DNA of 64,000 bases from Verrucomicrobiia bacterium (GCA_049510215.1 JBEKZD010000011.1:28151-92150), one strand, 5' to 3'; positions 4,814 to 48,049 are shown, counted from the first letter of the stretch. The notes: a model not told the origin generated them from the sequence alone. A program made the numbers and translations.

Positions 4814-5368
4814 ATGAGGAGGACCATCTGTGTCATAGTCGCCGTCGTGAGCGCATGTCTCGTTGCTCGCGCGGCGGAAAAGGAGGCAACCATGACGCAA
4901 TTCAAGTTGACCAGTTCTATGTTCGGCGCGAACCAACCGATCCCAAAGAGGAACACGGGTGAAGGCCCGGACGCGTCGCCCGCGCTGAAATGGGAAGGCG
5001 CGCCGCCGGCTACAAAGAGCTTCGCGTTGATTTGTGACGACCCCGATGCGCCCGTTGGCACCTGGGTGCATTGGGTCGTCTACGACATTCCGGCGAAGAC
5101 GACCGAGTTGCCCGAGAACGTGGCGAAGATGGACACGGTTCCCGCTCTGGGCGGGACGAAGCAAGGCGTGAACGATTTCGGGCGCGTGGGCTACGGCGGA
5201 CCGATGCCGCCGCGCGGGCACGGCGTCCATCATTATTACTTCAAGCTGTACGCGCTGGATGCCGAGTTGAATTTGCCGGCGAAGGCAACCAAGGCGCAAC
5301 TTGAAGGCGCGCTGCGCGGACATATCGTTGCCCAGGCGGAACTGATCGGGACGTACGAGAGAAAGTGA
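4814..5368 (+). CDS. YbhB/YbcL (PEBP/Raf-kinase-inhibitor-like) family protein, secreted
   Basis: ORF 4793-5368; Met at 4814 followed by signal peptide; PEBP motifs DPDAPVGTWVHWVVYDIP and GHGVHHYYFKLYALD. Confidence 0.75.
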   Translation: MRRTICVIVAVVSACLVARAAEKEATMTQFKLTSSMFGANQPIPKRNTGEGPDASPALKWEGAPPATKSFALICDDPDAPVGTWVHWVVYDIPAKTTELPENVAKMDTVPALGGTKQGVNDFGRVGYGGPMPPRGHGVHHYYFKLYALDAELNLPAKATKAQLEGALRGHIVAQAELIGTYERK

Positions 5369-5382
5369 CAAGCCGCAGGCTT

Positions 5383-5449
5383 GTCATCCTGAGCGTCAGC
5401 GAAGGATCTCCACGTAACGTCAGAGATTCTTCGCTTCGCTCAGAATGAC
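5383..5449. repeat. hairpin element family B (arms GTCATYCTGAGCG..CGAAG / CTTCGC..CTCAGRRTGAC)
   Basis: gtcatcctgagcgtcagcgaagga ... cttcgcttcgctcagaatgac, about 21-bp stem; second copy at 16200-16311. Confidence 0.6.
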
Positions 5450-6542
5450 ATCCGTGGTATTTGTGGCCACGATGGAAGCCGATACGACACGCATCACCGC
5501 GGACAAACCGTGTCTGCCGCCGTTTTCGAAGCGGCAAGAACGCGACCTGCTCACATCGCTCCTGCGGGACGTTTCCCGCTCGTTTTATCTGACGCTGCGC
5601 GTGCTGCCGCGCGAGATTCGGCCGCAGGTTTCGCTGGCGTATCTGCTGGCGCGTGCAAGCGACACGATTGCAGACACGAAGACGGTGGTGCGGGAGAAGC
5701 GGATCGAGCGCCTCCGAGAATTTCGTATGGTCTTGTGTGGGGAGGGTCGCGCTTCGTCGCGACCGTTGGCACAAAAACCCGGCCTCGACGGAGCGAGGCC
5801 CTCCAATCGTGCAGAAGCGACACTACTGGAGCGACTCGGCGATTGCGTCGAGATGTTCGCATCCTTCTCAACCGAAGACCGTACACGCATCAGCGAACTT
5901 CTCCAGGTCATCATCGATGGCCAAATCTTCGATCTGGAGCGATTTCCGGGGGAAAGCGAGCGGGAGTTGGTCGCGCTGCAAAACGACGATGAACTCGATC
6001 GGTACACGTACATGGTCGCAGGATGTGTTGGTGAATTCTGGACGAGGATGTGCAAAACCCATCTGCCCCAGTTGGAGTGTTGGAGCAGCGGAGCAATGGA
6101 AGAATTGGGGGTGCGATTTGGGAAGGGACTGCAGCTTGTGAACGTCTTGCGCGACATTCCCAAAGACTTGCGGATCGGGCGCTGTTATTTGCCCGTGAAA
6201 GAGCCGCGCACCTTGCTCGATCCCGCCAATTACGACTCGATACGACCCGAATACACCAAGTGGCTCGACCGCGCGGTCGAACATTTGGACGCGGGCTGGC
6301 AGTACACGATGCAGATTCCGTCGGACTTGTGGCGCTTGCGCCTCGCATGCGTCTGGCCGATTTGGATCGGGTTGAAAACCATCGCGCGATTGCGGCAGGG
6401 GAATCCGCTCGACCCATCGCACCGCATCAAGGTTTCGCGCGGGGAGGTTTATGGCTTGATGGCGCGGTCGTTTTTGGTTTGCCAGAGCGACGCGGCGCTC
6501 GATGAGAGATATCGGAAGCTGCGGCGGACAGCCATCCCGTAG
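5445..6542 (+). CDS. squalene/phytoene synthase family protein (HpnC/HpnD-like)
   Basis: SRSFYLTLRVLPREIRPQVSLAYLLARASDTIADT is typical of head-to-head isoprenoid synthases; start uncertain (Met at 5472 possible, because 5445 overlaps hairpin element). Confidence 0.65.
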   Translation: MTSVVFVATMEADTTRITADKPCLPPFSKRQERDLLTSLLRDVSRSFYLTLRVLPREIRPQVSLAYLLARASDTIADTKTVVREKRIERLREFRMVLCGEGRASSRPLAQKPGLDGARPSNRAEATLLERLGDCVEMFASFSTEDRTRISELLQVIIDGQIFDLERFPGESERELVALQNDDELDRYTYMVAGCVGEFWTRMCKTHLPQLECWSSGAMEELGVRFGKGLQLVNVLRDIPKDLRIGRCYLPVKEPRTLLDPANYDSIRPEYTKWLDRAVEHLDAGWQYTMQIPSDLWRLRLACVWPIWIGLKTIARLRQGNPLDPSHRIKVSRGEVYGLMARSFLVCQSDAALDERYRKLRRTAIP

Positions 6543-6617: not shown

Positions 6618-8198
6618 TTATGGCTTCCGTTGTTCGTCCTTGAAAAGCTTGTACTCGACGGAATCCACCAGCGCTTCCCAACTGGCTTCGATCAGGTTGT
6701 CGTGGACGCCGACCGTGCCCCAGATGTCGGCGCCATCGGTGGACTCGATGATGACGCGCGTCTTGGCAGCGGTGCCGGCCTGGGAGTCGAGGATGCGAAC
6801 TTTGTAATCCACGAGCTGCACGGCGGCAATGGACGGGTAGAACTTCATTAGCGCGGCGCGCAACGCCTTGTCGAGCGCGTTGACAGGACCGTCACCCTCG
6901 GCCACGGTGTGCACGACCTTGCCGTTCACGTCCAGCTTGACGCTGGCTTCGACTTTGCTGCCGCCGTCCTCGCCGTAGCGATCCATGATGACGCGATAGG
7001 CCAGCAGAGTGAAGAACGGTTTGTGTCGCTTGAGCAGTTTCTGCACGAGGATGTGGAAACTGGCGTCGGCCGCTTCGAATTCGTAGCCCGCGTGCTCGAG
7101 TTGTTTCAGTTGCTGCAATATTTCGCGGACCTCGGGCGAGTCCTTCGGCAGATGGACACCCAACTCGTGCGCCTTGATCAACACGTTGCTGCGCCCGCTC
7201 AATTCGCTGACGAGCACGCGGCGGCGGTTGCCGACCGCTTCAGGCTCGATGTGCTCGTAGCTGCGCGCCACCTTTTCGATGGCATCGACGTGGATGCCGC
7301 CTTTGTGCGCGAAGGCCGTCGCGCCGACGAACGGTTGGCGGATATCGTGGCGTACGTTCCCGAGGTCGTCGATGAACAACGACAACTCGCGCAGATGCCG
7401 AACGTTCTCTTTCGGGATGCACTCGATGCCCATCTTCAGCACGAGGCATGGGATGACGGTGGTCAGGTTGCAATTGCCCGTCCGCTCGCCGTAGCCGTTC
7501 ATCGTGCCTTGTACCTGCGCCGTGCCTTGCTCAACGGCAGCCAGCGCGTTGGCCGTGCCCAAGCCGCAATCGTTGTGCGTGTGAATGCCGACGGGGCAGG
7601 GGAGCGCCTTGCAGATTTCCGCAGTGATTCGTCCCACCTCGCCCTGCATCGAGCCGCCGTTGGTGTCGCAGAGCACGACGATGTCCGCACCAGCGTCCTG
7701 TGCGGCTTTCAACGTCGCCAGCGCGTAACGCGGGTCATCCTTGTACCCGTCGAAGAAATGTTCCGCGTCATAGACCACTTCTTTGCCGAGTTGTTTGAAA
7801 TGGCGCACCGAGTCTGCAATCATCGCGAGGTTTTCCCCGGGCGTCGTGCGAATGACTTCCGCGACGTGCAACGGCCACGTCTTGCCGACGAGTGTGACAA
7901 CGGGCGTATTGGCTTTCACCAGCATGTCGATCTGCGGGTCCTCCTTGCACTTTGTGTTCGCGCGGCGCGTGCTGCCGAAGGCCGCAATGCGAGCCTGCTT
8001 GAACCTCCGGTTTGCCACCTCCGTGAAGAAATCCATGTCCTTCGGGTTTGACCCCGGCCAACCGCCCTCGATGTAGTGCACCCCGAACGCGTCCAGCCGC
8101 TCGGCGATGCGGATCTTGTCCGCGCTCGAAAACGAGATGCCTTCGCCCTGCGCGCCGTCGCGCAACGTCGTGTCGTAGATTTTTACCTGTCTGCTCAT
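6618..8198 (-). CDS. 2-isopropylmalate synthase / citramalate synthase family (LeuA type, with LeuA-dimer C-terminal domain)
   Basis: MSRQVKIYDTTLRDGAQGEG...HTHNDCGLGTANALAAVEQG; 526 aa. Confidence 0.85.
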   Translation of the reverse strand: MSRQVKIYDTTLRDGAQGEGISFSSADKIRIAERLDAFGVHYIEGGWPGSNPKDMDFFTEVANRRFKQARIAAFGSTRRANTKCKEDPQIDMLVKANTPVVTLVGKTWPLHVAEVIRTTPGENLAMIADSVRHFKQLGKEVVYDAEHFFDGYKDDPRYALATLKAAQDAGADIVVLCDTNGGSMQGEVGRITAEICKALPCPVGIHTHNDCGLGTANALAAVEQGTAQVQGTMNGYGERTGNCNLTTVIPCLVLKMGIECIPKENVRHLRELSLFIDDLGNVRHDIRQPFVGATAFAHKGGIHVDAIEKVARSYEHIEPEAVGNRRRVLVSELSGRSNVLIKAHELGVHLPKDSPEVREILQQLKQLEHAGYEFEAADASFHILVQKLLKRHKPFFTLLAYRVIMDRYGEDGGSKVEASVKLDVNGKVVHTVAEGDGPVNALDKALRAALMKFYPSIAAVQLVDYKVRILDSQAGTAAKTRVIIESTDGADIWGTVGVHDNLIEASWEALVDSVEYKLFKDEQRKP

Positions 8199-8366
8199 TG
8201 GAAGACTCGAAGACTAAAACCAACCGCCGCGCTCGTCAACCTTGCACTTGGGCGGAGAATTGCCTCGACTTTTCGGCTCCGTTGTGCTTCAATATGCTTT
8301 GCGCGGACGAGAGAAGGTCTAAGGTCGGTTCATGATCATTCAACGCGGGGAATATAGGGCGCCTGC

Positions 8367-11300
8367 TTGCCGTTCCGGCTTCCTAACATCCGGTCTGGAA
8401 CTGATTCTATGCGGGCTGTGCAGGCACGGGACGTTCTTCACGACGTATCCAACCAACCTATGTTTATGACCGAGACAATCCTTGGGACACCGTTGCCGAT
8501 CGTGAGACGTCGGTTGAAGAATCGCGCCCCCGTTTTGCGTCTCCACGGCCCGTCGTTCAATAAAGTTCTCACTCGCGCCGGTCGTGCCACGGAACATGTT
8601 GCCGCAGCATGTGTTGCGATCCTCCTCTTCGCAACCTCCTCCGTCCAGGCCGCTGAAAGACAAGCGTTGCGCGGCCACGTGCCGAGGGCCATCGCAGACT
8701 TGAATTTGCAGCCCGTGGGCCTTCTTCCCGGCACGAACCGTTTGCATCTGGCCATTGGGTTGCCATTGCGCAACCAAGAAGCGCTCACTGCCTTGCTGCA
8801 ACAGCTTTACGACCCGGCCAGTCCCAACTACCGTCACTATCTGACGCCAGAACAGTTCACGGAAAAGTTTGGTCCGACAGAACAGGATTATCAAGCAGTC
8901 GTCGCATTCGCCAAGGCCAACGGATTTGCGGTGACGGCCACGTATCCCAATCGCGTGGTTCTTGACGTGGAAGGTACCGTCGCGGACATCGAGAGAACTC
9001 TCCATGTGACGATGCGGGTTTACCAGCATCCGACGGAAGCGCGCATGTTCTACGTGCCGGATGTCGAGCCATCGCTTGACTTGGCGGTACCAATCCTACA
9101 CATCAACGGGTTGGACAACTACGCGCTGCCGTTTCCAAAGCTTGTCCGGAAACCAGCCAGCAAGGTGGCCGTCGCGATGCCCAATGCCGGCTCGGGTCCG
9201 AGTGGGTCGTATCTGGGCTATGATTTTCGTAAGGCATATATTCCTGGGACAACATTGACTGGTACTGGTCAGAGCGTCGCACTGTTCGAATTGGACGGAT
9301 ATTACGCAGTTGACATCAGCAACTACGTGGCCCTGGCAGGATTGCCCAACGTACCGCTGGTGAATGTGCCGGTCAACGGTGGCATTGGCACTCCCGGCGT
9401 CAACGGCGGGATCGACGAGGTGTCATTGGACATTGAAATGGTGGTGGCAATGGCGCCCGGCCTTTCTCATGTTTACGTTTATGAAGGGCTGGATCCTGAT
9501 TCTGTCCTGAGTAAGATTGCCAGTGACAATCTGGCTCAACAAATAAGCTCCTCTTGGGGCTGGTCGCCGGGACCTGATTTGGTTGCCGATGGCATTTTTG
9601 CCGAGATGGCGACCCAAGGGCAGACCTTCTTCGATGCGGTTGGTGACTACGACGCATTTGCGCCGGGCACGGCGGATACCTACGCTCCAAGCACCAGCAC
9701 CAACATCACTGAGGTCGGCGGGACCACCTTGATGACGAGTGGTCCGGGCGGCGTTTGGACCAACGAAACGGTCTGGAACTGGAGAACAGCAAACCCGACG
9801 ATGGGGGAATGGGGCGGCAGCGGTGGCATCAGTACGAATTATTCGATTCCGGTCTACCAAAAAGGGATCATCATGTCTGTCAACGGCGGTTCGACAACAA
9901 AGCGCAATGTTCCCGACGTCGCCCTGACCGCCGACAATGTTTATGTGATCGCCAACAAGGGTGCGGATAACGGTATCTATGGCGGCACCAGTTGCGCGGC
10001 GCCGTTGTGGGCGGGCTTTACGGCCTTGATCAACCAGCAGGGTGCCGCCAACAGCGTTCCGCCGGTCGGCTTTCTCAACCCGGCCATCTACGCCATTGGC
10101 CCGAGCGGCAGCTACACCAACTGTTTTCACGACATCACCACCGGCAATAACACTTGGGGCGGCAGTACGAATCAGTTCTACGCCGTTTCCGGCTACGATC
10201 TCTGCACCGGTTGGGGTACGCCGAACGGCACCAACCTGATCAACGCGCTGTTGGGTGCGCCACTGGTGCCACCCTATCCCTCCCTTGTCAGTGTCGGCTC
10301 GATCGTGAGCGGGGGCAATGGCAACGGTGTGATTGATTACGACGAGTGCAATCTGCTCTACCTCCCGGTCGCGAATGTCGGCTACGGGACCGCCACCGTC
10401 GTCAACGCCACGCTGACGACCAGCACGCCCGGCGTCACGATCACCCAGCCTACCTCCACCTATTCGAACCTCGCGCCCGGCGCAATCACCACCAACAACA
10501 CGCCGTTCCAGATCAGCACCTCACTGTCATTCGTCTGCGGCACACCAATCCCGCTGTCGCTGGCGTTGTCCTACACCGGCGGCTCCAATACCAACACCAT
10601 TACCCTGCCCACCTGCCAATGCCCGACGATTCAAGTGAACGGCAGCTTGAGTGCCAGCAGCCCGACGCAGAGCGGCAGCCTCTGGCCCAGTGGCACGAAC
10701 AGTACCTGCAGTGCTGCGAAATCCTGCCCCGGGACGTATGCAGCGGGTACGGTCGCCTATCACGCTTACTCATACACGAACTCAAACAGTTCGGCAGTTT
10801 GCGTGTCCGTGACCGTCTCCGCAACTTGCGGTGATGACTACTACAGTTCCATTTTCTCGGAGGCGTATCTCGGCAATTACAATCCCGGCAGTCTCTGCAC
10901 ACACTACCTAGCCGACATGGGTGGCAACGACGGGCAGTACAGCGGCCCGGGGGTATTTAGTTACTCCTTCACCGTTCCTGCCAACACCAACTTCACTGTG
11001 GTCGTGAATGGGATGCACCATGGTTACTATTGCTCCAGTTACACCCTCACCGTCGCCGGCCTGCTCTGTCCATTGGATGGTGGTGGCGCGTGTGCCGGAG
11101 TCTCGGCGAATTTCAGCGGAACACCCACGAATGGTGTCGCTCCATTGGCCGTGACTTTCACCGACACCTCGACCGGCACAATCACGAACCGATTCTGGGA
11201 TTTCGGCGACAGCACCACCACCAACACGACCGCGACCAACGTCCAGCACACGTACAACGCGGCGGGCACCAATACCGTGACGTTGATCGTCAGCGGGCCA

Positions 11301-16199: not shown

Positions 16200-16311
16200 G
16201 TCATTCTGAGCGAAGCGAAACCGCTGCGGGCCATCTGTCGTTCGATGGCAAATCTCTGGTGTTGCCCCGGTTTCCCAAACGACCGAGACCCTTCGCTAAG
16301 CTCAGGGTGAC
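16200..16311. repeat. hairpin element family B (second copy) in lysC leader region
   Basis: gtcattctgagcgaagcgaa ... ccttcgctaagctcagggtgac flanking about 70-nt loop; compare 5383-5449. Confidence 0.55.
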
Positions 16312-33184: not shown

Positions 33185-33210
33185 GCCAGCCCCGAAAGCC
33201 TTCGGGCCAG
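33185..33210. repeat. small palindromic element family C (GCCAGCCCCGAAAGCYTTCGGGGCCAG)
   Basis: gccagccccgaaagccttcgggccag; near-identical copy at 43345-43372. Confidence 0.6.
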
Positions 33211-40122: not shown

Positions 40123-41204
40123 AAGCCCAGCACCCTCCTGATTTCGGCTTCGTCCGTGAGACTGCGCCGCACCAACTCACGGGCAGCAGTTTCCAATAAC
40201 TCCAACGGCGTGACCGCTGCGGCTCCGTTTGCCTGCAGGCGGGAGCGCAGCGATTCATCCACTCTGACCCATTCCACCAACGGCACGCGGCCTTTGTAGC
40301 CCGTTCGCAAACAACTCTCGCAGCCTTCGCCCCGGCAAATGTCGCAAACACGCCTGACCAGCCGCTGGTTCAGCACCAGACCAAGCACCGACACCACGGC
40401 GAAACGGTCGGGGCACATCACCAGCAATCGCTCAACGACGCCGCGACACGAGCCGGCGTGCAGCGTTGTGATCACGAGGTGACCCGTCAGCGCGGCGCGC
40501 ACAGCGATGTTGGCGGTTTCCTCGTCGCGGATTTCGCCGATGACCAGCACCTGCGGGTCCTGCCGCAGAAGATGCCGGGCGGCTTTTGAAAACGTCAGCC
40601 CGCGCGCTTCGTTGACCTCCGTCTGCATGACGTTGGGAATGATCTGCTCGACGGGATCTTCGACTGTGATGATGTGCCGCGAGCCGGACTCGGCAAGGTG
40701 GCGCAGACAGGCGTAGATGGTTGTCGTCTTGCCACTGCCGGCCGGTCCGGTCAGAAGCAGGAGGCCGGCGCTCTGGCGGAGGAACGTCTCCAATTCAGCG
40801 CGGGCCGGTTCGGGGAAATTCAGTTCACGCAGCGACGGCGTGCCCGTCGTGGTGAACAGCCGCAGCACAATTTTTTCACCGGTCACGGTCGGGTAGGTGG
40901 CGACGCGGATGTCTTGTTGCGCGCCGACATCGGCCTTGTCGATCCGGCCATCCTGCGGAAGCGAATCCTGATACGTCTTCAGCCGCGCTAGGAATTTGAT
41001 CCGACCGAAAACGCGTTCAGCCGTTTCCTTGGGCAGGCTCGTGACAGGGGTGACGATTCCGTCGAGGCGAAAGGAAACCTCTGCTGATTCGCCGCGCATC
41101 TGCAGATGGATGTCGCTGGCGCAGACCGACTCGGCCTGCTGAATCAGGTCGTCTAACAACTTTGGAGCGACGACTTCCGACACGAGCCGATTGTAGCGTT
41201 TCAT
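40119..41204 (-). CDS. short GspE/PilB-family secretion ATPase (361 aa, lacks N-terminal domains)
   Basis: Walker A LLLTGPAGSGKTTT; Asp/His boxes ITVEDPVEQ, LVIGEIRDEETA, LTGHLVITTLH; C-terminal CxxC. Confidence 0.8.
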   Translation of the reverse strand: MKRYNRLVSEVVAPKLLDDLIQQAESVCASDIHLQMRGESAEVSFRLDGIVTPVTSLPKETAERVFGRIKFLARLKTYQDSLPQDGRIDKADVGAQQDIRVATYPTVTGEKIVLRLFTTTGTPSLRELNFPEPARAELETFLRQSAGLLLLTGPAGSGKTTTIYACLRHLAESGSRHIITVEDPVEQIIPNVMQTEVNEARGLTFSKAARHLLRQDPQVLVIGEIRDEETANIAVRAALTGHLVITTLHAGSCRGVVERLLVMCPDRFAVVSVLGLVLNQRLVRRVCDICRGEGCESCLRTGYKGRVPLVEWVRVDESLRSRLQANGAAAVTPLELLETAARELVRRSLTDEAEIRRVLGL

Positions 41205-41235
41205 TTTGGAAAAGCAAGCTTACTCTTGCGGAGGC

Positions 41236-41300
41236 GACACATCGCCGAGGTCACCAGCAATCGCGGCGTCGTCGAAGGCAAACGCGAACCCCTTATCGAG
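41236..41300 (+). repeat. degenerate duplicate of clpX 3'-terminal coding segment
   Basis: acatcgccgaggtcaccagcaatcgcggcgtcgtcgaaggcaaacgcgaacccc vs clpX 36592-36658; about 88% identity; encodes [21 protein letters not shown]. Confidence 0.7.
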
Positions 41301-41734
41301 AAAACATCTCGGCTGTTGAAGCTTTTTTCTCGGATTTCCGACCAAATGGCTCAAATTCCTATTCCCTCTGTCAAATGCTGGCCCCGAATGTCTGAGCACT
41401 AGCTGCTTTCCCCTCCGCGGAGGGAACGAAGGGGTGGGTTCCGCCTGCTCCGGATGCTTTCGGGGTAAACTTTTGAGGCGATGCATCGGTATCCGATGTA
41501 TCACCGGTTGTCACGTCCCCGCGTGTGCTGTGGAAAACCGACCCCGGCTCCTGCGGATTCCGTCAATTGTCAGGCGTTGACCCCGGCGACTAAAAAAGAA
41601 GATTGACGACGACGCCGAATCGCCGAACACTTGCCCCGATTAGAGCGGGGCTGCCCGCCGCCATCGCCAAGACCAGCGCCGCCGGGGCGAACCTGAGCGC
41701 CAGCGTTCGGCGAAACAAATGAGAGGAAATAAAA

Positions 41735-42376
41735 ATGCCACTGCATATCTTTTGGGATAACTCCAATCTCTGGGGAAGCGCACAGGCGTTGCGCCAGGTT
41801 CGAGAGCCAGATGTTCCGTGGGTCGCGCTTCGAGTCTACTTCCGAAACATCTACCAACTTGTGACACAAGATAGGCCCGTAACAACAAGAATCATGTCAG
41901 GTTCTGTCCCACCAGAATGCGAGGACCTTTGGGAATACGCGCGCCAAATCGGTTTCGAGACAAATCTCTTGCAGCGTGTCAAAACTGACGAGGACCAGCG
42001 CCGTCACGAACAAGCCGTGGACGAACTCCTTCACCTGAAAATGAGCAATGTCATCCTCGACTATGACCTACCACAGACGATGGTCGTTTTGTCAGGCGAC
42101 AGCCGAGAATCGGACTATGGTACAAGTTTTCCCTCTCAAGTATTGCGCGCCCTGCGAAACGGGTGGGATGTCGAGGTTTATTCCGCTAGCATGTGTATTA
42201 GCCAGAGAACATATTCACCAATTGTGCAAGAGTTCGGAACGCGATTGCGAATCGTGCATCTCGACGGCCAATATGAGTCAATAACCTTTGTACGTGGCGG
42301 TGAGTATTACGAGAAGGATGCCGCAGGAATCCGTACTTACTTTACTGTGCCAGAGAGAATTGTCAGGCCTTTGTAG
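41735..42376 (+). CDS. NYN-domain (LabA-like PIN-type) putative ribonuclease
   Basis: IFWDNSNLW (DxN) and MVVLSGDSRESDYG (SGDxD) NYN motifs; AGGA RBS; region GC markedly lower than flanks. Confidence 0.65.
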   Translation: MPLHIFWDNSNLWGSAQALRQVREPDVPWVALRVYFRNIYQLVTQDRPVTTRIMSGSVPPECEDLWEYARQIGFETNLLQRVKTDEDQRRHEQAVDELLHLKMSNVILDYDLPQTMVVLSGDSRESDYGTSFPSQVLRALRNGWDVEVYSASMCISQRTYSPIVQEFGTRLRIVHLDGQYESITFVRGGEYYEKDAAGIRTYFTVPERIVRPL

Positions 42377-42438
42377 GCCGAACCAGCCGCCGGACTTTAT
42401 TTCGCCCGAAGACGGGTGAAAAAGTCAGCGGTGACGTT

Positions 42439-43080
42439 GTGCCGATGAAAGAAAACAAACCGAAAATGCCGCATGATGCTTCCATCCGCATTGTCAAAAC
42501 GCGACATGACCCTCGCGTAAAAGTAAAGTCTGACGGTAAGCCGTGGGACTATTCAATCTATCCTGACTTGAGTCAAAGCCAGATCGAGGCGTTTCAGACA
42601 ATCGGAGAGACGCTGTATATGATTCAAATGGCCGAGAACGCCATCAAGATTTCCATTCGCTTCATTCTGAATGACGAAAACACCTACACAATCGAAGATC
42701 TCACAGCTCGCAATAGAGGAAAAAAGAAACGAACGCTCGGCCAACTCCTGCTGGAAGTTCGTAAATATTCAGATTTACATCCGCAGTTTGATGGGATGTT
42801 GGAGGCCTTTCTTGAAAAGCGAAACTGTTTTATCCACCAGATATTTTCTTCGAAAGAGTATGGTCTAAACAGCGATGAACAGCTTGCGCGCGTTAACGCC
42901 TTCCTTTGCGATTTACAGGATGATGCATGGAACGTTCAGAATGTTTTTCTTGGCTGCCTCAGACATTGGACGAAGGCGCACGGAATCTTTGACTCCCTCC
43001 CACAATCAATCCGTGAAGACAAGCATCTCACCCAGTTGGACGGGAAGGGATTTGAGCTATTATTGCGACAAAAGAAATAG
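42439..43080 (+). CDS. hypothetical alpha-helical protein with R-N-x3-H (HEPN-like) motif
   Basis: 213 aa, no recognised family; FLEKRNCFIHQIF fits HEPN Rx4-6H motif; low GC, adjacent to NYN gene. Confidence 0.45.
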   Translation: MPMKENKPKMPHDASIRIVKTRHDPRVKVKSDGKPWDYSIYPDLSQSQIEAFQTIGETLYMIQMAENAIKISIRFILNDENTYTIEDLTARNRGKKKRTLGQLLLEVRKYSDLHPQFDGMLEAFLEKRNCFIHQIFSSKEYGLNSDEQLARVNAFLCDLQDDAWNVQNVFLGCLRHWTKAHGIFDSLPQSIREDKHLTQLDGKGFELLLRQKK

Positions 43081-43150
43081 AAGATGGCACAACAATCGGC
43101 CGGAGGTTATAGAAAACCCCAGACGGTTTTCAAAACCTCAGCCACACCGT

Positions 43151-43480
43151 TATCGCCTCTTTCTCTTTGGCTTCGCAGCCGCCACGAGCGGCGCGGTGAG
43201 TTTTTCGTAGAGGGCGAAGAGGTATTCGACGCGCTGGCGGTCGCTGGGGAACGGGTCGGGCCGGTAACAGCGATCCACGGCGTGGTCGAGTTCCTGATGC
43301 GCCTTGAGCAGCGGAGCCGGCATCATCAACGGGTCGTACAGATCGGCCAGCCCCGAAAGCTTTCGGGGCCAGCGTCGAGGTCGGGAACTTCGCCCGCGCG
43401 TCCAACACCGCCTGCGCCGCCGCTTCGACCGCCGTCCGCTGCTTGTCCGTCAACTGCGGCACGATAACCAACTTACTCAA
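43151..43480 (-). pseudogene. 3' remnant of MmeI-family type IIG restriction-modification gene (frameshifted)
   Basis: encodes ...QLTDKQRTAVEAAAQAVLDARAKFPTSTLA then, after a frame break at the palindromic element, DLYDPLMMPAPLLKAHQELDHAVDRCYRPDPFPSDRQRVEYLFALYEKLTAPLVAAAKPKRKRR*. Confidence 0.6.
43345..43372. repeat. small palindromic element family C, inside the MmeI-like remnant at its frame break
   Basis: ggccagccccgaaagctttcggggccag; compare 33185-33210. Confidence 0.6.
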
Positions 43481-44402
43481 GCCGCTTCCGCGCAGGGTGA
43501 ACCGTGTAAAGGGCTTGGTCTTCCGCGACCAGACACGCCTTCTCGGTGATGGTGGCCTTTTCGAACATGAGCCGGGCGGGGGTGAACGGGTCAGAGTTCT
43601 CGGCTTTCAAATACCGGGCGGCCATTCGGCAATACTCAGGCTCGATCTCGACGCCGATGCTGTTGCGGCCCGTTTTCAGGGCGGCGACCAGTGTTGTGCC
43701 GGTTCCGCAGAACGGATCGAGGACGGTGTCACCGGCAAAGGAGAACATCTTCACGAGTCGCAGCGCCAATTGCATTGGGAAGGGTGCGGGATGGTGTTTT
43801 GTCGAGGCACCGGTGATGTTCCAGATTTGCTGAAACCATTCGCTGAAGTCCTTCTTGTTGATGCGGCTTTCGTCGCGCTGGCCGTTGGTCGGTTGCCGGT
43901 AACCGCCGGGCTTGCGCTGCATGAGGATGAACTCCATGTCGTTCTTGATGATCGCATTTGGCTCGTACGGTTTGCCAAGGAACTTCGAGCCGTTGGAGAC
44001 TTCATACGAGGCGTTGGAGATTTTGTGCCAGATGATCGGATTGAGATTGTCGAACCCAATCCGGCGGCAAAGGACGGCGATGTCCGCATGGAGCGGGAAC
44101 ACTAAATGCCGGCCGAATCGTTTGCGCGAGACGCACACGTCGCCGACAACGCAGACGAGCCGTGCGCCCGGCACGAGGACGCGCAGGACATGCCGCCAGA
44201 CCTTGTCCAACTCGCCGAGAAACGTCTCGTAGTCCTGGATATGGCCAAGTTGATCGGGATTCTCCTGATAGCGTTTCAGATTCCAATAAGGCGGCGAGGT
44301 CACCACGAGATGCACCGACTCGTCCGGTAGGAACGAGAGGTCGCGGGCGTCTCCGTGCACCAAGCGATGCATTGTCTGAGCCTTGGATGTCTCGTACTTC
44401 AT
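43473..44402 (-). CDS. DNA methyltransferase (beta-class N6A/N4C, motif IV SPPY before motif I DPFCGTGTT)
   Basis: HLVVTSPPYWNL ... DTVLDPFCGTGTTLVAA; 4-nt overlap with upstream REase gene. Confidence 0.8.
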   Translation of the reverse strand: MKYETSKAQTMHRLVHGDARDLSFLPDESVHLVVTSPPYWNLKRYQENPDQLGHIQDYETFLGELDKVWRHVLRVLVPGARLVCVVGDVCVSRKRFGRHLVFPLHADIAVLCRRIGFDNLNPIIWHKISNASYEVSNGSKFLGKPYEPNAIIKNDMEFILMQRKPGGYRQPTNGQRDESRINKKDFSEWFQQIWNITGASTKHHPAPFPMQLALRLVKMFSFAGDTVLDPFCGTGTTLVAALKTGRNSIGVEIEPEYCRMAARYLKAENSDPFTPARLMFEKATITEKACLVAEDQALYTVHPARKRLE

Positions 44403-45151
44403 AGCTCTTTGATTCGACCGGAGAATGCTGCCACATGTGCGACCAAAGAATTGGCAAACATCTGAAACGTGAGATCGGCTGCGGGTTCGGAGTATTCACC
44501 ATTGGCTCCCTTTTCAGCGTTCGACATCATGAATGACGCGGCATCGTAGTGGCGCTCTAAAACGAGACGGCGACAGAATAATTCATATCGCTTCGCGTAG
44601 GACGAATTCCGAAACTCAGGGAACACTTTGAAATGTGGTTCTTTGACGCCGACCGGGCGGTTTGACGGGGCACAGTCCTCAAGAAGGAACATGTAGCCGA
44701 TCCATGGCCGAACCCGCGATCCGAATGCTTTCTCGCGGAAAGCCGTCCACAGATCTAAAGCGCTACCCATCGCTTCTTCCGTGCGATTGTTAAAATTGTT
44801 TCCAAATGATGGGCCAACTTGGGATTTAGCTTCGAGCGCCGCTACCAACTGGCCTTTGACGACGACAATAAAGTCCCATTTCTTATTCGGTCGGAAGTAA
44901 CCCGGCAATTCGAGCGAGTCCTGATAATAGATGTGCGACCGGTCAATCCCCGCTTCAGTGACAAGCTTCGTCAGTAATTCGATGAAGCCGTCCATCTGCG
45001 CACCACCTGTTACTGCTGAGCGCAGACCTTGATCCGAGCCGCCAGCTTCGCGTTGTTTCTGCAACTGCTTGGAACGGGTTTGCCAATAAAACTTAACTGC
45101 ATCTGGAACATACTTCCGCAGTTCGGCGAGAGTTGAAGGATTTTTAGGCAT
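44399..45151 (-). CDS. putative type II restriction endonuclease (PD-(D/E)xK-like)
   Basis: 250 aa cotranscribed with the MTase; WDFIVVVKGQLVAALEAKSQ resembles PD...ExK core; otherwise no family match. Confidence 0.5.
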   Translation of the reverse strand: MPKNPSTLAELRKYVPDAVKFYWQTRSKQLQKQREAGGSDQGLRSAVTGGAQMDGFIELLTKLVTEAGIDRSHIYYQDSLELPGYFRPNKKWDFIVVVKGQLVAALEAKSQVGPSFGNNFNNRTEEAMGSALDLWTAFREKAFGSRVRPWIGYMFLLEDCAPSNRPVGVKEPHFKVFPEFRNSSYAKRYELFCRRLVLERHYDAASFMMSNAEKGANGEYSEPAADLTFQMFANSLVAHVAAFSGRIKEL

Positions 45152-45163
45152 TGTGTCGACGCC

Positions 45164-45421
45164 TCATACCAGCGGAGTGTAGCTGTGAGGAGATGCTTCG
45201 ACAAGCTCAGCATGACAGAATGGCGGGTCTATGAAACCCCAATCGCCGGAGAGCTTCTTGACCGGCTCCTCAAACGTAGCGACGGTGCGGCGACGGACGC
45301 CGAAGACGTTGAAGAAGTCGTTCCAGTAGGATTGGCGCTCGGCGGCTTCGCGGGTTTCGCCTTTCCATTCTTTGCTAAAGGTGATGGCGCGATGGCGAAT
45401 CTCGTTCCACGAGAGTGGCAT
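45164..45421 (-). pseudogene. 5' remnant of MmeI-family type IIG gene (N-terminal about 75 aa)
   Basis: MPLSWNEIRHRAITFSKEWKGETREAAERQSYWNDFFNVFGVRRRTVATFEEPVKKLSG matches MmeI-family N-terminus, then degenerates to a stop. Confidence 0.55.
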
Positions 45422-45600
45422 GCTGCGCAGTGTAGCGAAGCAGAGACTCTGCGACAATCCTTCGTTTCACTCAGGACGGCGGCTGACTGGGGGGACAAGG
45501 GGCAGCGGACGCGACGAAGCGCGTCCCTCCAGTTCGGACACGCGCGGGAGCCGAGCAATTGTGTTGACCGGGTCGGGAAAGTTCTCCATCAGTTAACGCC

Positions 45601-46956
45601 GTGACGACCGAGAATTCAGTGAAGATGCCGCATGGGGTGGGGAACGCGTTTGCGTTTCAGGTGTTCAACACGATGTCGTTTACCATCGTGTTGAGCACGC
45701 CGATGCTCCTGTATTTCAAACGTCTGGACGCTTCGGCGACCGTTCTGGGAATCGTCGTCGCGCTGCCGAACCTGCTGAACATTCTGCAGATTCCCGCCGC
45801 CCAGTTTGTGGAGAAGATGGGGTACCGCGCGTTTGTGCTGCGCGGGTGGCTGGTGCGCGCTCTGTTCATCCTGGCGATGGCGGTGGTGCCGCTGTTGCCG
45901 GCAAAAATCGACGCCACCACCCGGATCGCGCTGATGCTGTTTCTCCTGTTTGGCTACAACGCGTCGCGCGGGATTTCGTTGTGCGGGTTCCTGCCGTGGG
46001 TCACGCACTGGATTCCGGAGCCGGTGCGCGGTCGTTACGTTTCGCGCGACCAGATGTGGAGCGCAGTGGCGACGCTGGTGACGATGATTCTGGCGGCGGT
46101 GTATCTGACTAAGCCGGAAGCACGACTTTCATATGCGTTCCTTTTTTTGGGGAGTCTTGTGACCGCGCTGGTCAGTCTTCTTTTTTTGCGCCGGATCCCC
46201 GACGTGCCCGTGCCGCCATACGCGGCGAGTCGGGAGAAAGTGCCGTACAAACAGATGCTGTTGCATCCGCCGTTCCTGAAGATCCTGATTTACGATGCAG
46301 TGTTGTTGACGGCACTGGCAGGCAGCAGCGTGTTTTGGATTCCGTTCTTGCGCGACACGTTCGGGGCCAGTGATGCCTTCATCCTCTGGATGATGGTGGC
46401 GTGGAGCGTTGTGATGACGGTGTCCCTTTGGGGGTTCGGCCATCTCATCGACCGCGTGGGCAGCCGCCCGCTGCTGGGACTGGGCACCGTCAGCTTCATC
46501 ATTCATTTCAGCTTGTGGGGCGCGCTCGCGGCCCGAGTGCTGCCGTTCAATTGGGTGACGCTGGGCGCGATCCAACTCACGTCCGGGATCGGCAACTCGC
46601 TCTACAACCTTGCGAACACGCGATTGGTCATGGCGACTGTGCCGCCGATGGGGCGCAGCCATTTCTTCGCGCTGTTTACCGTCGTGACGAGCCTGGTGCT
46701 CGGTGTCTTGCCGGTCTTCTGGGGAATCCTGCTCGATTCGCTGGCAGGGTGGGGGACCACTTGGAGCGCATGGCAGTGGAACCAGTACAGCCTGCTGTAC
46801 TGCGCGCTGATGCTCATCGTCATTGTCGCGTTGGTCTTGCGTAAACGGTTGAGCGAGCCGCGGGCAATGACCACGGACGCCTTCCTGCGCGAGTTGCTCG
46901 TTGAGACGCCTGGCCGCGCCCTCAGCCGTCTGCTGGCGCGCCGGCCTTTCTCCTGA
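45601..46956 (+). CDS. MFS transporter
   Basis: 451 aa, 12 predicted TM helices, MFS-type loops. Confidence 0.75.
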   Translation: MTTENSVKMPHGVGNAFAFQVFNTMSFTIVLSTPMLLYFKRLDASATVLGIVVALPNLLNILQIPAAQFVEKMGYRAFVLRGWLVRALFILAMAVVPLLPAKIDATTRIALMLFLLFGYNASRGISLCGFLPWVTHWIPEPVRGRYVSRDQMWSAVATLVTMILAAVYLTKPEARLSYAFLFLGSLVTALVSLLFLRRIPDVPVPPYAASREKVPYKQMLLHPPFLKILIYDAVLLTALAGSSVFWIPFLRDTFGASDAFILWMMVAWSVVMTVSLWGFGHLIDRVGSRPLLGLGTVSFIIHFSLWGALAARVLPFNWVTLGAIQLTSGIGNSLYNLANTRLVMATVPPMGRSHFFALFTVVTSLVLGVLPVFWGILLDSLAGWGTTWSAWQWNQYSLLYCALMLIVIVALVLRKRLSEPRAMTTDAFLRELLVETPGRALSRLLARRPFS

Positions 46957-46997: not shown

Positions 46998-47684
46998 ATG
47001 ATCGCACTTGTTGACTATGGAATGGGCAACCTGCGCAGCGTCGAGAAAGCGCTGACGCGGGTCGGGGGAGATGTGCGCATCGTGAGCGACCGCGGATCGG
47101 TGCTCACGGCGGACGCGCTCGTGTTGCCGGGCGTCGGCGCGTTCGGCGACTGCATGACGAATTTGGAGCGGTTGGACCTTGTCGAACCCATCCGCGAGTT
47201 CATCGCAATCAAGCGACCGTTTCTCGGCATCTGCCTCGGGTTTCAGGCGTTATTCGAGTCCAGTGAAGAAGCGCCCGGCGTGAACGGTTTGGCGATCTTT
47301 GCAGGCACTGTCCCACGGTTTGATTTTAATGGTGCTGCCACACAGGCAGGGATGACTGTGCCACCAAATGCCAGTGGACTGAAGGTGCCGCACATGGGGT
47401 GGAACCAACTCCGCATCCGCAAGGCCGACTGCCCGGTGTTGGCGGGCATTGCCGACGGCAGCTACGTGTACTTCGTGCACAGCTACTATTGCGCGCCGAC
47501 CAACAAGTCGCTCATGTGCGCGACGACGACGTACGGCATCGAGTTTTGCTCGATGTTGTGGAGTGGGAGTGTGTTTGCGACGCAGTTCCACCCGGAGAAG
47601 TCGCAGGCCGTGGGACTGAAGATGCTGGAGAATTTTGTGAGATTGGCGGAGAAGTCAGGAGACAGAAGACAGGAGACAGAATGA
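46998..47684 (+). CDS. hisH: imidazole glycerol phosphate synthase glutamine amidotransferase subunit
   Basis: MIALVDYGMGNLRSVEKAL...LPGVGAFGD...GICLGFQ...HMGWN...FVHSYY. Confidence 0.9.
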   Translation: MIALVDYGMGNLRSVEKALTRVGGDVRIVSDRGSVLTADALVLPGVGAFGDCMTNLERLDLVEPIREFIAIKRPFLGICLGFQALFESSEEAPGVNGLAIFAGTVPRFDFNGAATQAGMTVPPNASGLKVPHMGWNQLRIRKADCPVLAGIADGSYVYFVHSYYCAPTNKSLMCATTTYGIEFCSMLWSGSVFATQFHPEKSQAVGLKMLENFVRLAEKSGDRRQETE

Positions 47685-48049
47685 GGCGCGAGCCGGCCAA
47701 GACATTCCGAGACTTGATCGTCTGGCAAAAAGCGCATCAACTGGTTCTGGCGCTCTACCGGTTCACGAACGACTTCCCGAAGTCTGAGACTTACGGTTTG
47801 ACAAGCCAGTTGCGCCGTGCGGCCGTCTCCGTGCCGGCGAACATCGCGGAAGGCTTCAAGAAAATGGGTCGCCCCGACAAGGCGCGATTTATGAACACAG
47901 CACAAGGCTCCCTTGAGGAATGCCGTTACTATCTGATCCTCGCCGCGGACTTGGGATACGGTGGAACAGACGAACTGTACAACCAACTCGATGAAGTCGG
48001 CCGATTGCTCGACGCTTACGCCTCAGCTATTCTGTCTCCTGTCTCCTGA
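47681..48049 (+). CDS. four-helix-bundle protein (TIGR02436-like, 23S rRNA intervening-sequence protein family)
   Basis: FRDLIVWQKAHQLVLALYRFTNDFPKSETYGLTSQLRRAAVSVPANIAEGF; ATGA overlap with hisH stop; sits between hisH and hisA. Confidence 0.75.
   Translation: MRREPAKTFRDLIVWQKAHQLVLALYRFTNDFPKSETYGLTSQLRRAAVSVPANIAEGFKKMGRPDKARFMNTAQGSLEECRYYLILAADLGYGGTDELYNQLDEVGRLLDAYASAILSPVS

Follow-up and report, generated by a model that had tools for sequence, protein, structure and literature searches.

What becomes of a large restriction-modification (R-M) gene when an unrelated R-M system lies inside it, and is such an arrangement an accident of one genome or one case of a recurring layout? The question is raised by a locus in a 64,000-nt stretch of DNA from a Verrucomicrobiia bacterium (GCA_049510215.1, JBEKZD010000011.1:28151-92150; hereafter the window, with positions counted from its first nucleotide), where the two ends of an MmeI-like gene flank a DNA methyltransferase (MTase) and a putative restriction endonuclease (REase) on the minus strand. 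Anatomy and function taken together, we consider it quite probable that this is a small defence islet in which a dead MmeI-family (type IIG) gene forms the shell of a working R-M system directed at CTCGAG. By itself the locus is an ordinary, if neat, case of R-M turnover; it is the recurrence of its layout that is new.

The two ends of an MmeI-family gene and the pair between them

The identity of the two stubs was judged by Pfam, PADLOC and PDB searches. The N stub comprises MmeI-family codons 1-65 (45227..45421, minus strand). Its open reading frame (ORF) starts at 45421 with MPLSWNEIRHRAITFSKEW..., matches Pfam MmeI_N over positions 2-59 of 181 (E 4e-10) and is 94-95% identical in amino acid sequence to three intact relatives (L011, L017 and L019). 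Nucleotide homology of five intact relatives with the window runs from the ATG to 45226 (...GGTTTCATAGACC), beyond which the sequences are unrelated; the stub ORF reads on through 20 further codons of foreign DNA and stops at 45164-45166. The homology ends at the Asp of GFID, so that the LFWPG...E.K segment of the intact relatives has been lost. In MmeI this segment completes the PD-(D/E)XK nuclease motif (D...E-x-K). With the profile match confined to the positions given above, no N-terminal nuclease domain with its catalytic motif is found in the window.

The C stub corresponds to codons ~843-935 of a ~940-aa MmeI-family gene (43153-43453) and gives two Pfam MmeI_C matches in different frames. 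Its proximal part (LTDKQRTAVEAAAQAVLDARAKFPTSTLA; 43367..43453, minus strand; codons ~843-871 of the intact relatives) matches positions 2-29 of 83 (E 8e-8), and its distal part, 64 codons reading DLYDPLMM...KPKRKRR (43153..43344, minus strand, stop at 43150-43152), matches positions 29-82 (E 1e-19). Amino acid identity to intact relatives is 82-90% for the whole stub and 86-90% for the distal part alone, and nucleotide homology with five intact genes starts at ~43453, 19 nt past the MTase stop. Both stubs score above the Pfam gathering score and are collinear with intact L011, L015, L017 and L019, on the same strand and in the order N then C. Between them lies a foreign segment of 1,772 nt (45225 to 43454, minus strand), delimited by alignment of the two junctions. 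When a 944-aa intact relative was compared with the 64-kb window by tblastn, residues 1-65 and 843-926 were matched and no MmeI homology was found beyond the two stubs. The helicase-like spacer, the gamma-class N6-adenine methyltransferase and the target recognition domain are absent from them, interior codons 66-842 being missing, and the surviving share of the protein is ~17%. What survives differs from intact alleles at 10-17% of nucleotides, mostly at synonymous sites, with a single indel, the 22-nt insertion described below. Judged by these alignments, the stubs descend from a genuine MmeI-family gene and are relics of fairly recent date. Both are non-functional, the N stub being without nuclease, methyltransferase and recognition parts and the C stub being frameshifted. 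The window thus matches both termini of the MmeI type IIG/IIL family as a relic and not as a working member.

The break in the C stub is the work of a small hairpin. Alignment with intact alleles places at 43345..43373 a 22-nt insertion with a 7-bp direct repeat (GGCCAGC, CCCGAAAGCTTTCGG, GGCCAGC on the plus strand), consisting of a 15-nt core (43352-43366) and the duplicated GGCCAGC target (43345-51 and 43367-73). Aligned with five intact genes, the extra 22 nt lie between ...ACCTCGAC and GCTGGCCGATCTG...; they are absent from intact L011, L014, L015, L017 and L019 and present in two independent assemblies. The insertion shifts the reading frame, hence the two MmeI_C matches in separate frames, and its removal restores 93 uninterrupted codons ending in KPKRKRR and a stop. 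It contains a perfect 20-nt palindrome (43350-43369), and together with the duplicated target it forms a 12-bp stem (RNA fold -23.5 kcal/mol, z -4.1). REP-like (repetitive extragenic palindromic) and miniature palindromic insertions within genes are known, for example the Rickettsia palindromic elements. The hairpin is like these in being a short insert with a target direct repeat inside coding sequence, and unlike them in being only 22 nt long, in having two copies in 64 kb and in breaking the frame of an already dead gene. The palindrome occurs twice in the window (at 43350 and at 33189-33208), against 0.02 copies expected by chance, and was not found in 111 loci of other organisms; an abundant repeat, "family C", is not supported by these counts in the window and the 111 loci. 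The other copy (CCAGCCCCGAAAGCCTTCGGGCCAG, 33186-33210) is intergenic and has the same GCCAG...CCAG flanks as the copy in the C stub, which hints that the element either prefers such targets or includes these ends as its own.

The foreign segment is occupied by two genes. The upstream one (44399..45151, minus strand; PF04555, PADLOC) encodes a 250-aa type IIP endonuclease of the XhoI/PaeR7I family with the predicted target CTCGAG. It matches PF04555 along its full length (positions 1-191 of 191, E 2e-90, 302 bits against a cut-off of 25) and PADLOC REase_II over positions 5-245 of 247 (E 1e-93). The downstream one (43473..44402, minus strand; PF01555, PADLOC, PDB 2ZIE) encodes a 309-aa MTase that matches PF01555 over positions 1-220 of 221 (E 5e-42) and PADLOC MTase_II (E 2e-63). 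In its translation, motif IV (TSPPYW, residues ~35-40) stands ahead of motif I (DPFCGTGTT, residues ~226-234), which places the enzyme in the beta class. Its closest solved relative is PDB 2ZIE, deposited as "Putative modification methylase" (E 1e-118 over residues 11-263), which we take to be T. thermophilus TTHA0409 (M.TthHB8I), an N6-methyladenine (m6A) enzyme specific for TCGA. The target CTCGAG contains TCGA. The predicted picture is of an ordinary type IIP R-M pair, in which the endonuclease would cut unmarked CTCGAG and the MTase would mark the adenine of (C)TCGA(G). Like known XhoI/PaeR7I type IIP systems (CTCGAG), the pair combines a full-length REase match with the overlapping R-then-M order of its closest homologues; unlike them, it is without a controller protein and lies inside another gene's remains, and its specificity is a predicted one. 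Since the interior of the MmeI-like gene is gone and an intact pair of unrelated families stands in its place, one R-M system has replaced the body of another within the same ORF.

The sequence-only reading of this DNA thus holds in most of its anatomy. The surviving MmeI-like ends that it saw on the minus strand are borne out by the MmeI_N and MmeI_C matches and by 82-95% amino acid identity to intact ORFs of ~940 aa. It located both ends correctly, and alignment redraws their extent, from ~75 aa at 45164-45421 to 65 codons of true homology (45227-45421) at the N end and from ~65-90 aa at 43151-43480 to 93 codons (43153-43453) at the C end. The intact beta-class MTase and putative REase with a 4-nt overlap stand, with full-length PF01555 and PF04555 matches and an ATGA overlap. 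The 28-nt palindrome that it put at the frame change sits exactly there, and the inserted DNA proper is 22 nt, the 12-bp stem formed with the duplicated target accounting roughly for the larger figure; "family C" is a family of two copies in the window.

Some of the geometry of the locus bears on expression. The two genes, adjacent and intact as befits a type II pair, overlap by ATGA and are predicted to be co-transcribed. A 74-nt junction spacer (45152..45226, minus strand) precedes the REase gene, and the stop of the N-stub ORF falls within it, 12 nt before the REase ATG; this proximity and the ATGA overlap suggest translational coupling. On this geometry the old MmeI 5' region would drive the pair as one operon. 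The spacer also carries a leader-like element (TTCTGTCATGCTGAGCTTGTCGAAGCATCTC...TACACTCC, ~45172-45220), of which 31 nt are identical to DNA just upstream of the ATG of an intact MmeI-like gene (L020). The consensus of this element reads TGTCAyyCTGAGCTTGTCGAAGrrTCTC...TACACTCC..N5-6..ATG, with yy and rr varying complementarily. Copies in the window lie on the minus strand at 45172-45220, in degenerate form at 45425-45457 upstream of the N-stub ATG, and at 16291-16305; elsewhere they were seen in L020 (7396-7470), in L095 (9233) and in spacers of L098, L100, L101 and L110. The element precedes, in the same orientation, the intact MmeI-like gene of L020, a methyltransferase remnant in L095 and GspE-like genes in relatives. 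It has no Rfam match and no significant fold, and an Rfam search over 41000-46000 gave no match at E <= 1.

CTCGAG itself is scarce in the window: 7 sites are observed, where shuffles predict 22 and a fourth-order Markov model 28, a depletion of 3-4-fold (~4-fold by the model). No other hexamer palindrome with a meaningful expectation is depleted as much. In 252 kb of relatives in which no cassette was seen (L091-L111), depletion is of the same order, 36 sites standing against 107 expected, and CTCGAG ranks second of 64 hexamer palindromes. A depletion common to cassette-free relatives points to long, group-wide exposure to CTCGAG restriction, and not to the activity of the window's own copy.

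The arrangement is found beyond a single assembly. The exact REase protein is indexed in 94 collection blocks, and the gene layout was the same in all 24 contigs that were read; two of these (L001 and L002, 216 kb and 260 kb, from different peat samples) carry a locus identical to that of the window. The same layout in independent contigs establishes that it is not an assembly artefact and that it is stable in a natural population.

Recurrence of the layout and movement of composites

MmeI-like loci were collected from GTDB, at one genome per species, with the repaired C stub as query. The scan yielded 80 loci, mostly from Verrucomicrobiota (Limisphaerales and similar metagenome-assembled genomes (MAGs) from peat or lakes), with some from Planctomycetota, Acidobacteriota and others. 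The alleles (L011-L090), 79-90% identical in their C-terminal domain, occur in MAGs assigned to Verrucomicrobiota, Planctomycetota (Sedimentisphaerales, Thermoguttaceae) and Acidobacteriota (Ca. Acidoferrum) and in a "Bifidobacteriaceae" bin, a spread over phyla that reflects either wide horizontal transfer or mis-binned contigs. Seventy loci could be assessed. In 46 the gene is intact (one ORF of ~940-1,040 codons with both ends), and intact relatives of ~940 aa carry all five domains (MmeI_N, MmeI_hel, MmeI_Mtase, MmeI_TRD and MmeI_C). Five genes are full-length and frameshifted, 12 are 5'-truncated or C-terminal fragments, and seven retain both ends without the middle, five of them bearing cargo and two being plain internal deletions.

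Composites of the window's kind were sought with the joined stubs as query, by inspection of context and by tblastn with a full-length relative. The best matches of the joined-stub search were short proteins, MmeI_N fused to MmeI_C or C-terminal pieces alone. They do not amount to a large family of short MmeI_C stubs, an idea that was rejected since most are contig-end fragments or frameshifted full-length genes, some probably products of error-prone long-read assembly (L124, L125). The in-frame N+C fusions among such proteins (P0001-P0012, P0046, P0061, P0068, P0072 and P0114) are 130-242 aa long, have many different breakpoints and are 35-82% identical to the window stubs. Several of the breakpoints lie a few codons or less from those of the window (N ~61-65, C ~828-846), a clustering that is either real or an effect of the search.

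An N stub, cargo and C stub in that order recur in at least seven further independent loci, making eight composites with the window. An N stub of codons 1-137 and a C stub from codon 840 enclose a broken GmrSD type IV enzyme in L003-6; codons 1-95 and a C stub from codon 756 enclose a PEP-CTERM protein in L007/L016; and codons 1-99 and a C stub from codon 788 enclose a 581-aa AAA_21/AAA_15 ATPase in L022. A C5 methyltransferase is the cargo twice, with a GIY-YIG protein in L031 (N codons 3-44, C from codon 844) and with a 204-aa ORF in L059 (N codons 3-80, C from codon 859). L082 (N codons 1-63, C from codon 887) holds a Dam-like methyltransferase and a SacI-like endonuclease, and L122/L123 (N codons 1-~150, C from ~806-834) hold an NspV endonuclease with a co-oriented ORF of 415/528 aa, which belongs to no Pfam family and whose C-terminal tail reads as that of a DNA methyltransferase. 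Breakpoints and cargo differ from locus to locus, which argues for separate events. In L003 a side feature was noted: a 1,064-bp segment (5020-6083), carrying both the MmeI N stub and the first part of the GmrSD fragment, has the opposite orientation in L004 (5396-6459; also L005 and L006), the contigs being otherwise 99.9% identical. L004 has also lost 371 nt next to this segment, and there the GmrSD start forms a fusion with a sigma-70/DUF3738 gene.

The composites have more in common than their outline. The cargo consists of R-M or defence genes in six of the eight, and it is co-oriented with the dead ORF in all eight (binomial p ~0.004 under random orientation). Packing was counted over nine loci, that is, the eight composites with the NspV composite taken at both its loci. 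The distance from the N junction to the start of the cargo is 0-94 nt in seven of the nine; the stub ORF stops no more than 31 nt from the cargo start, or overlaps it, in six (the corresponding gap in the window being 12 nt); and in six the C-stub homology begins between -5 and +30 nt from the cargo stop. The best reading is that MmeI-like genes of related bacteria have been hollowed out repeatedly by what appears to be the same process.

Composites can, it seems, also relocate as units bounded by the ends of the old ORF. L122 and L123, on different contigs with unrelated flanks, share a single alignment of 3,094 nt at 90.7% identity, which begins ~20 nt ahead of the MmeI ATG and closes ~30 nt past the stop. 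Identity stays level at 90-95% through stubs and cargo and is random beyond. Intact alleles compared between contexts also have the ORF alone in common, their homology starting ~0-50 nt from the ATG in nearly all pairs and ending at or before the stop. These coinciding limits imply that whatever relocates MmeI-like genes also relocates the hollowed-out version, and it is therefore plausible that the composite arrived in the window ready-made. A mosaic of identity or a crossover, as spread by homologous recombination would leave, was seen neither between L122 and L123 nor between the window stubs and intact alleles.

The cargo of the window is at home elsewhere too. REase homologues number in the thousands, are close and come from soil and peat metagenomes, and some are named PaeR7I family by NCBI. 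In the four contigs inspected (L114, L116, L119 and L126; REase 89-95% identical in amino acid sequence) the same overlapping R-then-M pair stands in unrelated contexts with no MmeI stubs; the pair is, by this token, a compact unit that turns up in many places, and an XhoI-type cassette is found between housekeeping genes as well. Nucleotide homology with these nearest cassettes begins ~5 nt ahead of the REase ATG and breaks off ~145 nt short of the MTase stop; neither the MTase tail nor the 74-nt spacer on the 5' side has a nucleotide match in them. At the junctions (43454 and 45225), a repeat search over 43000-45700 gave no convincing terminal inverted or direct repeats, the best inverted pair being 27 nt at 70% and misplaced. 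An R-M unit borne by a transposon or miniature inverted-repeat transposable element is rejected, that search having shown no convincing terminal repeats or target-site duplication around the cassette. An integron cassette is rejected with 19 nt from the MTase stop to the C-stub homology, no integrase within +/-10 kb and no suitable inverted repeat, and a phase-variable or shufflon locus with no recombinase gene nearby and the locus identical in L001 and L002.

Origin of the composite

How, then, did the pair come to occupy the gene? In the sequence of events that we propose, a compact R-M cassette would have been taken up into an MmeI-like gene at the cost of the gene's interior, by recombination that was illegitimate or homology-facilitated illegitimate, with orientation and tight packing kept by selection because they allow expression. 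The composite would then have come to its present place, or formed there, together with a pair of genes for NYN and HEPN-like proteins, and it would spread either whole or by means of recombination within the stubs.

Several observations weigh against parts of the reading put forward at the outset. The C-terminal ~46 residues of the MTase differ from those of the nearest cassettes, its last ~48 codons find no nucleotide alignment there, and the 3' junction is not base-precise. Scans for sigma-70 promoters and intrinsic terminators over 42900-45700 gave no match. The depletion of CTCGAG is not specific to this genome. Neither an intact MmeI gene nor a pre-insertion state of this site has been seen in a close relative, the relatives available being distant (major facilitator superfamily (MFS) transporter 67-82% identical in amino acid sequence). 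The recurrence survey was seeded with the window's own stubs and is not an unbiased census; it covers the MmeI family only, and no excess over other large dispensable genes is claimed.

The present place is a spacer between a GspE-like gene and the MFS gene, and it is here that the simplest alternative must be judged. In five relatives (L091, L096, L098, L106 and L110; MFS 67-82% amino acid identity) the divergent GspE-like and MFS genes lie ~90-160 nt apart. The short, empty spacer and its alignments indicate that a whole islet of ~4.25 kb, stubs included, is an insertion (41230..45480; the edges, 41225-41232 on the left and 45460-45500 on the right, are approximate). None of the 80 GTDB loci shares a flanking gene with the window; for want of flanking synteny, metagenomes were searched with the neighbouring MFS transporter, and the 23 loci so obtained have no MmeI sequence at the spacer, being empty there or carrying a different insert. 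That an intact MmeI-like gene stood in this very spacer and was hollowed out in place by the XhoI-type cassette is possible, and our estimate leans slightly away from it. The stubs are so little decayed (the nucleotide differences and single indel given above) that the disruption need not be old, and the GC content of the REase gene, ~51% and lower than the ~60-64% of the stubs, speaks for different histories of cassette and shell. On the other side, relatives have no MmeI sequence in the spacer, L122/L123 show a composite of this kind sitting ready-made in two contexts, and the relatives are too distant for events to be dated from them. The sequence-only reading had spoken of one R-M system replacing another at the same locus: this holds for the ORF, and with the spacer empty in relatives the replacement itself may have taken place elsewhere. 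An intact MmeI-like gene at this position, for which that reading looked to relatives, is not to be found there.

A composite formed once and elsewhere might instead have entered by exchange with a resident MmeI-like allele, using the N- and C-terminal coding ends as homology arms. The ends, some 200-300 nt each, are indeed parts conserved among alleles of several phyla (82-95% amino acid identity). N breakpoints cluster at codons ~61-65 in the window, L082, P0001 and P0005, and C breakpoints at codons ~834-846 in the window, L003, L031, L123, P0003, P0010 and P0072. The existence of a second variable slot, which separates the MmeI 3' end from a conserved ~100-nt element (described below), is in keeping with such exchange. 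But the even identity of L122 and L123 over stubs and cargo shows no mosaic or crossover, the two stubs of the window are about equally distant from the same alleles, and the clustering is in part an ascertainment effect of querying with the window stubs; we regard this route as doubtful.

Perhaps no special route is called for: large, dispensable MmeI-like genes are often broken, R-M cassettes land anywhere, and the pattern would have no particular meaning. Broken genes are certainly common (5 frameshifted, 2 with internal deletions and 12 5'-truncated among the 70), in-frame N+C fusions with varied breakpoints exist, and the XhoI-type cassette does settle between housekeeping genes. Chance is weakened as an explanation by the uniform orientation of the eight cargos, by junctions unusually tight on both sides and by the six cargos in eight that are R-M or defence genes, and we think it unlikely to account for the pattern. 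A functional role for the stubs, whether as small proteins or as a split or regulated form of MmeI, is hardly credible, for although short in-frame MmeI_N-MmeI_C ORFs (130-242 aa) occur in several lineages and some C-terminal ORFs begin exactly at the domain boundary, the window C stub is frameshifted, its N stub is without catalytic motif and runs into foreign sequence, and the fusion breakpoints vary from case to case in a set biased by the fact that only in-frame fusions can be called as one ORF.

The preferred reading, of a dead MmeI-family gene enclosing a working CTCGAG pair, admits an extension, speculative and in our estimate rather improbable as a whole: the ends of MmeI genes might constitute a portable shell in which defence genes are repeatedly installed, expressed and exchanged with resident alleles, a recombinase-free exchange site internal to a gene. 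Promoter, start and short leader ORF would come from the 5' end and homology from the conserved coding sequence at both ends, and the second variable slot would lie between the MmeI 3' end and the ~100-nt leader element.

Allelic substitution of R-M systems between conserved host genes is documented (Furuta, Abe & Kobayashi 2010, Nucleic Acids Research, PMC2853133), as is the allelic diversity of type IIG recognition domains, together with the E. coli immigration control region (review PMC12707154). The window resembles allelic R-M substitution in that one R-M system stands in another's place, in the absence of integrase and transposase, in atypical composition and in the use of compact mobile cassettes. 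There the flanks are conserved host genes, whereas here the displaced gene itself supplies them, with its first 65 and its last 93 codons; moreover the old ORF is packed with cargo in its own orientation, and its limits are kept when the composite relocates. With the P2/P4 defence hotspots (PMC13586616) and with defence islands the window shares variable defence cargo between conserved anchors, and neighbouring slots vary by genome (NYN/HEPN-like, HEPN_Swt1/DUF5343 and pP_pnuc_1 modules). It differs from them in scale, that of a single ORF (~2.8 kb), in its anchors, which are coding remnants of a defence gene and a ~100-nt non-coding element and neither phage nor core genes, and in that no mobile-element machinery was seen at the window locus. 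No description of cargo inside MmeI genes with the displaced gene's termini as anchors was found in the open-access literature.

For annotation, the window would hold one working R-M system (predicted CTCGAG, m6A), one dead type IIG gene and an NYN/HEPN-like pair in a small islet, and the dead type IIG gene should not be counted as a defence system. Should a census confirm the recurrence, other defence genes would have their preferred landing sites and expression scaffolds in large single-polypeptide R-M genes, a simple route for the turnover of defence repertoires without mobile-element enzymes, and short MmeI_N/MmeI_C ORFs could serve as markers for unknown defence cargo between them.

The islet and its neighbourhood

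GC content is 45-52% inside the islet and ~58-64% outside. The islet contains a conserved element of ~100 nt, two low-GC genes of 213 codons each, the C stub, the MTase and REase genes and the N stub. Of the two 213-codon genes, orf213a (41735..42376, plus strand) encodes a putative RNase with an NYN (PIN-like) domain, and orf213b (42439..43080, plus strand) a helical, HEPN-like protein with an invariant R-N-x-F-x-H motif; both are convergent with the composite, and orf213b lies in the islet's second variable slot.

The ~100-nt element (41585..41696, plus strand; core AATCGCCGAACACTT) is non-coding, lies upstream of orf213a and was defined by blastn and alignment with L003, L007, L020 and L082; its core is also exact in L012, L016 and L084. 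Its orientation relative to the MmeI-type gene is constant, and in at least seven loci it is found 0.7-1.7 kb past the stop of that gene. The interval between the MmeI 3' end and the element is the second variable slot, whose gene content is different in every locus.

The same GspE/MFS spacer is filled differently in one relative, L095, where a 2.2-kb insert (7820-9990) comprises a 334-aa ankyrin-repeat gene and the start of a methyltransferase; the short ORF of the latter opens with MNRLLFGDNLKWL, as is typical of DNA methyltransferases at the N-terminus. Insertions may land in this spacer repeatedly. Farther along the window, between hisH and hisA (47681-48049, plus strand), lies a gene for a 122-aa four-helix S23 ribosomal/23S rRNA intervening-sequence protein (PF05635, with a weak match to bAvd). 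In relatives hisH and hisA are directly adjacent, and the PF05635 gene looks like another small insertion.

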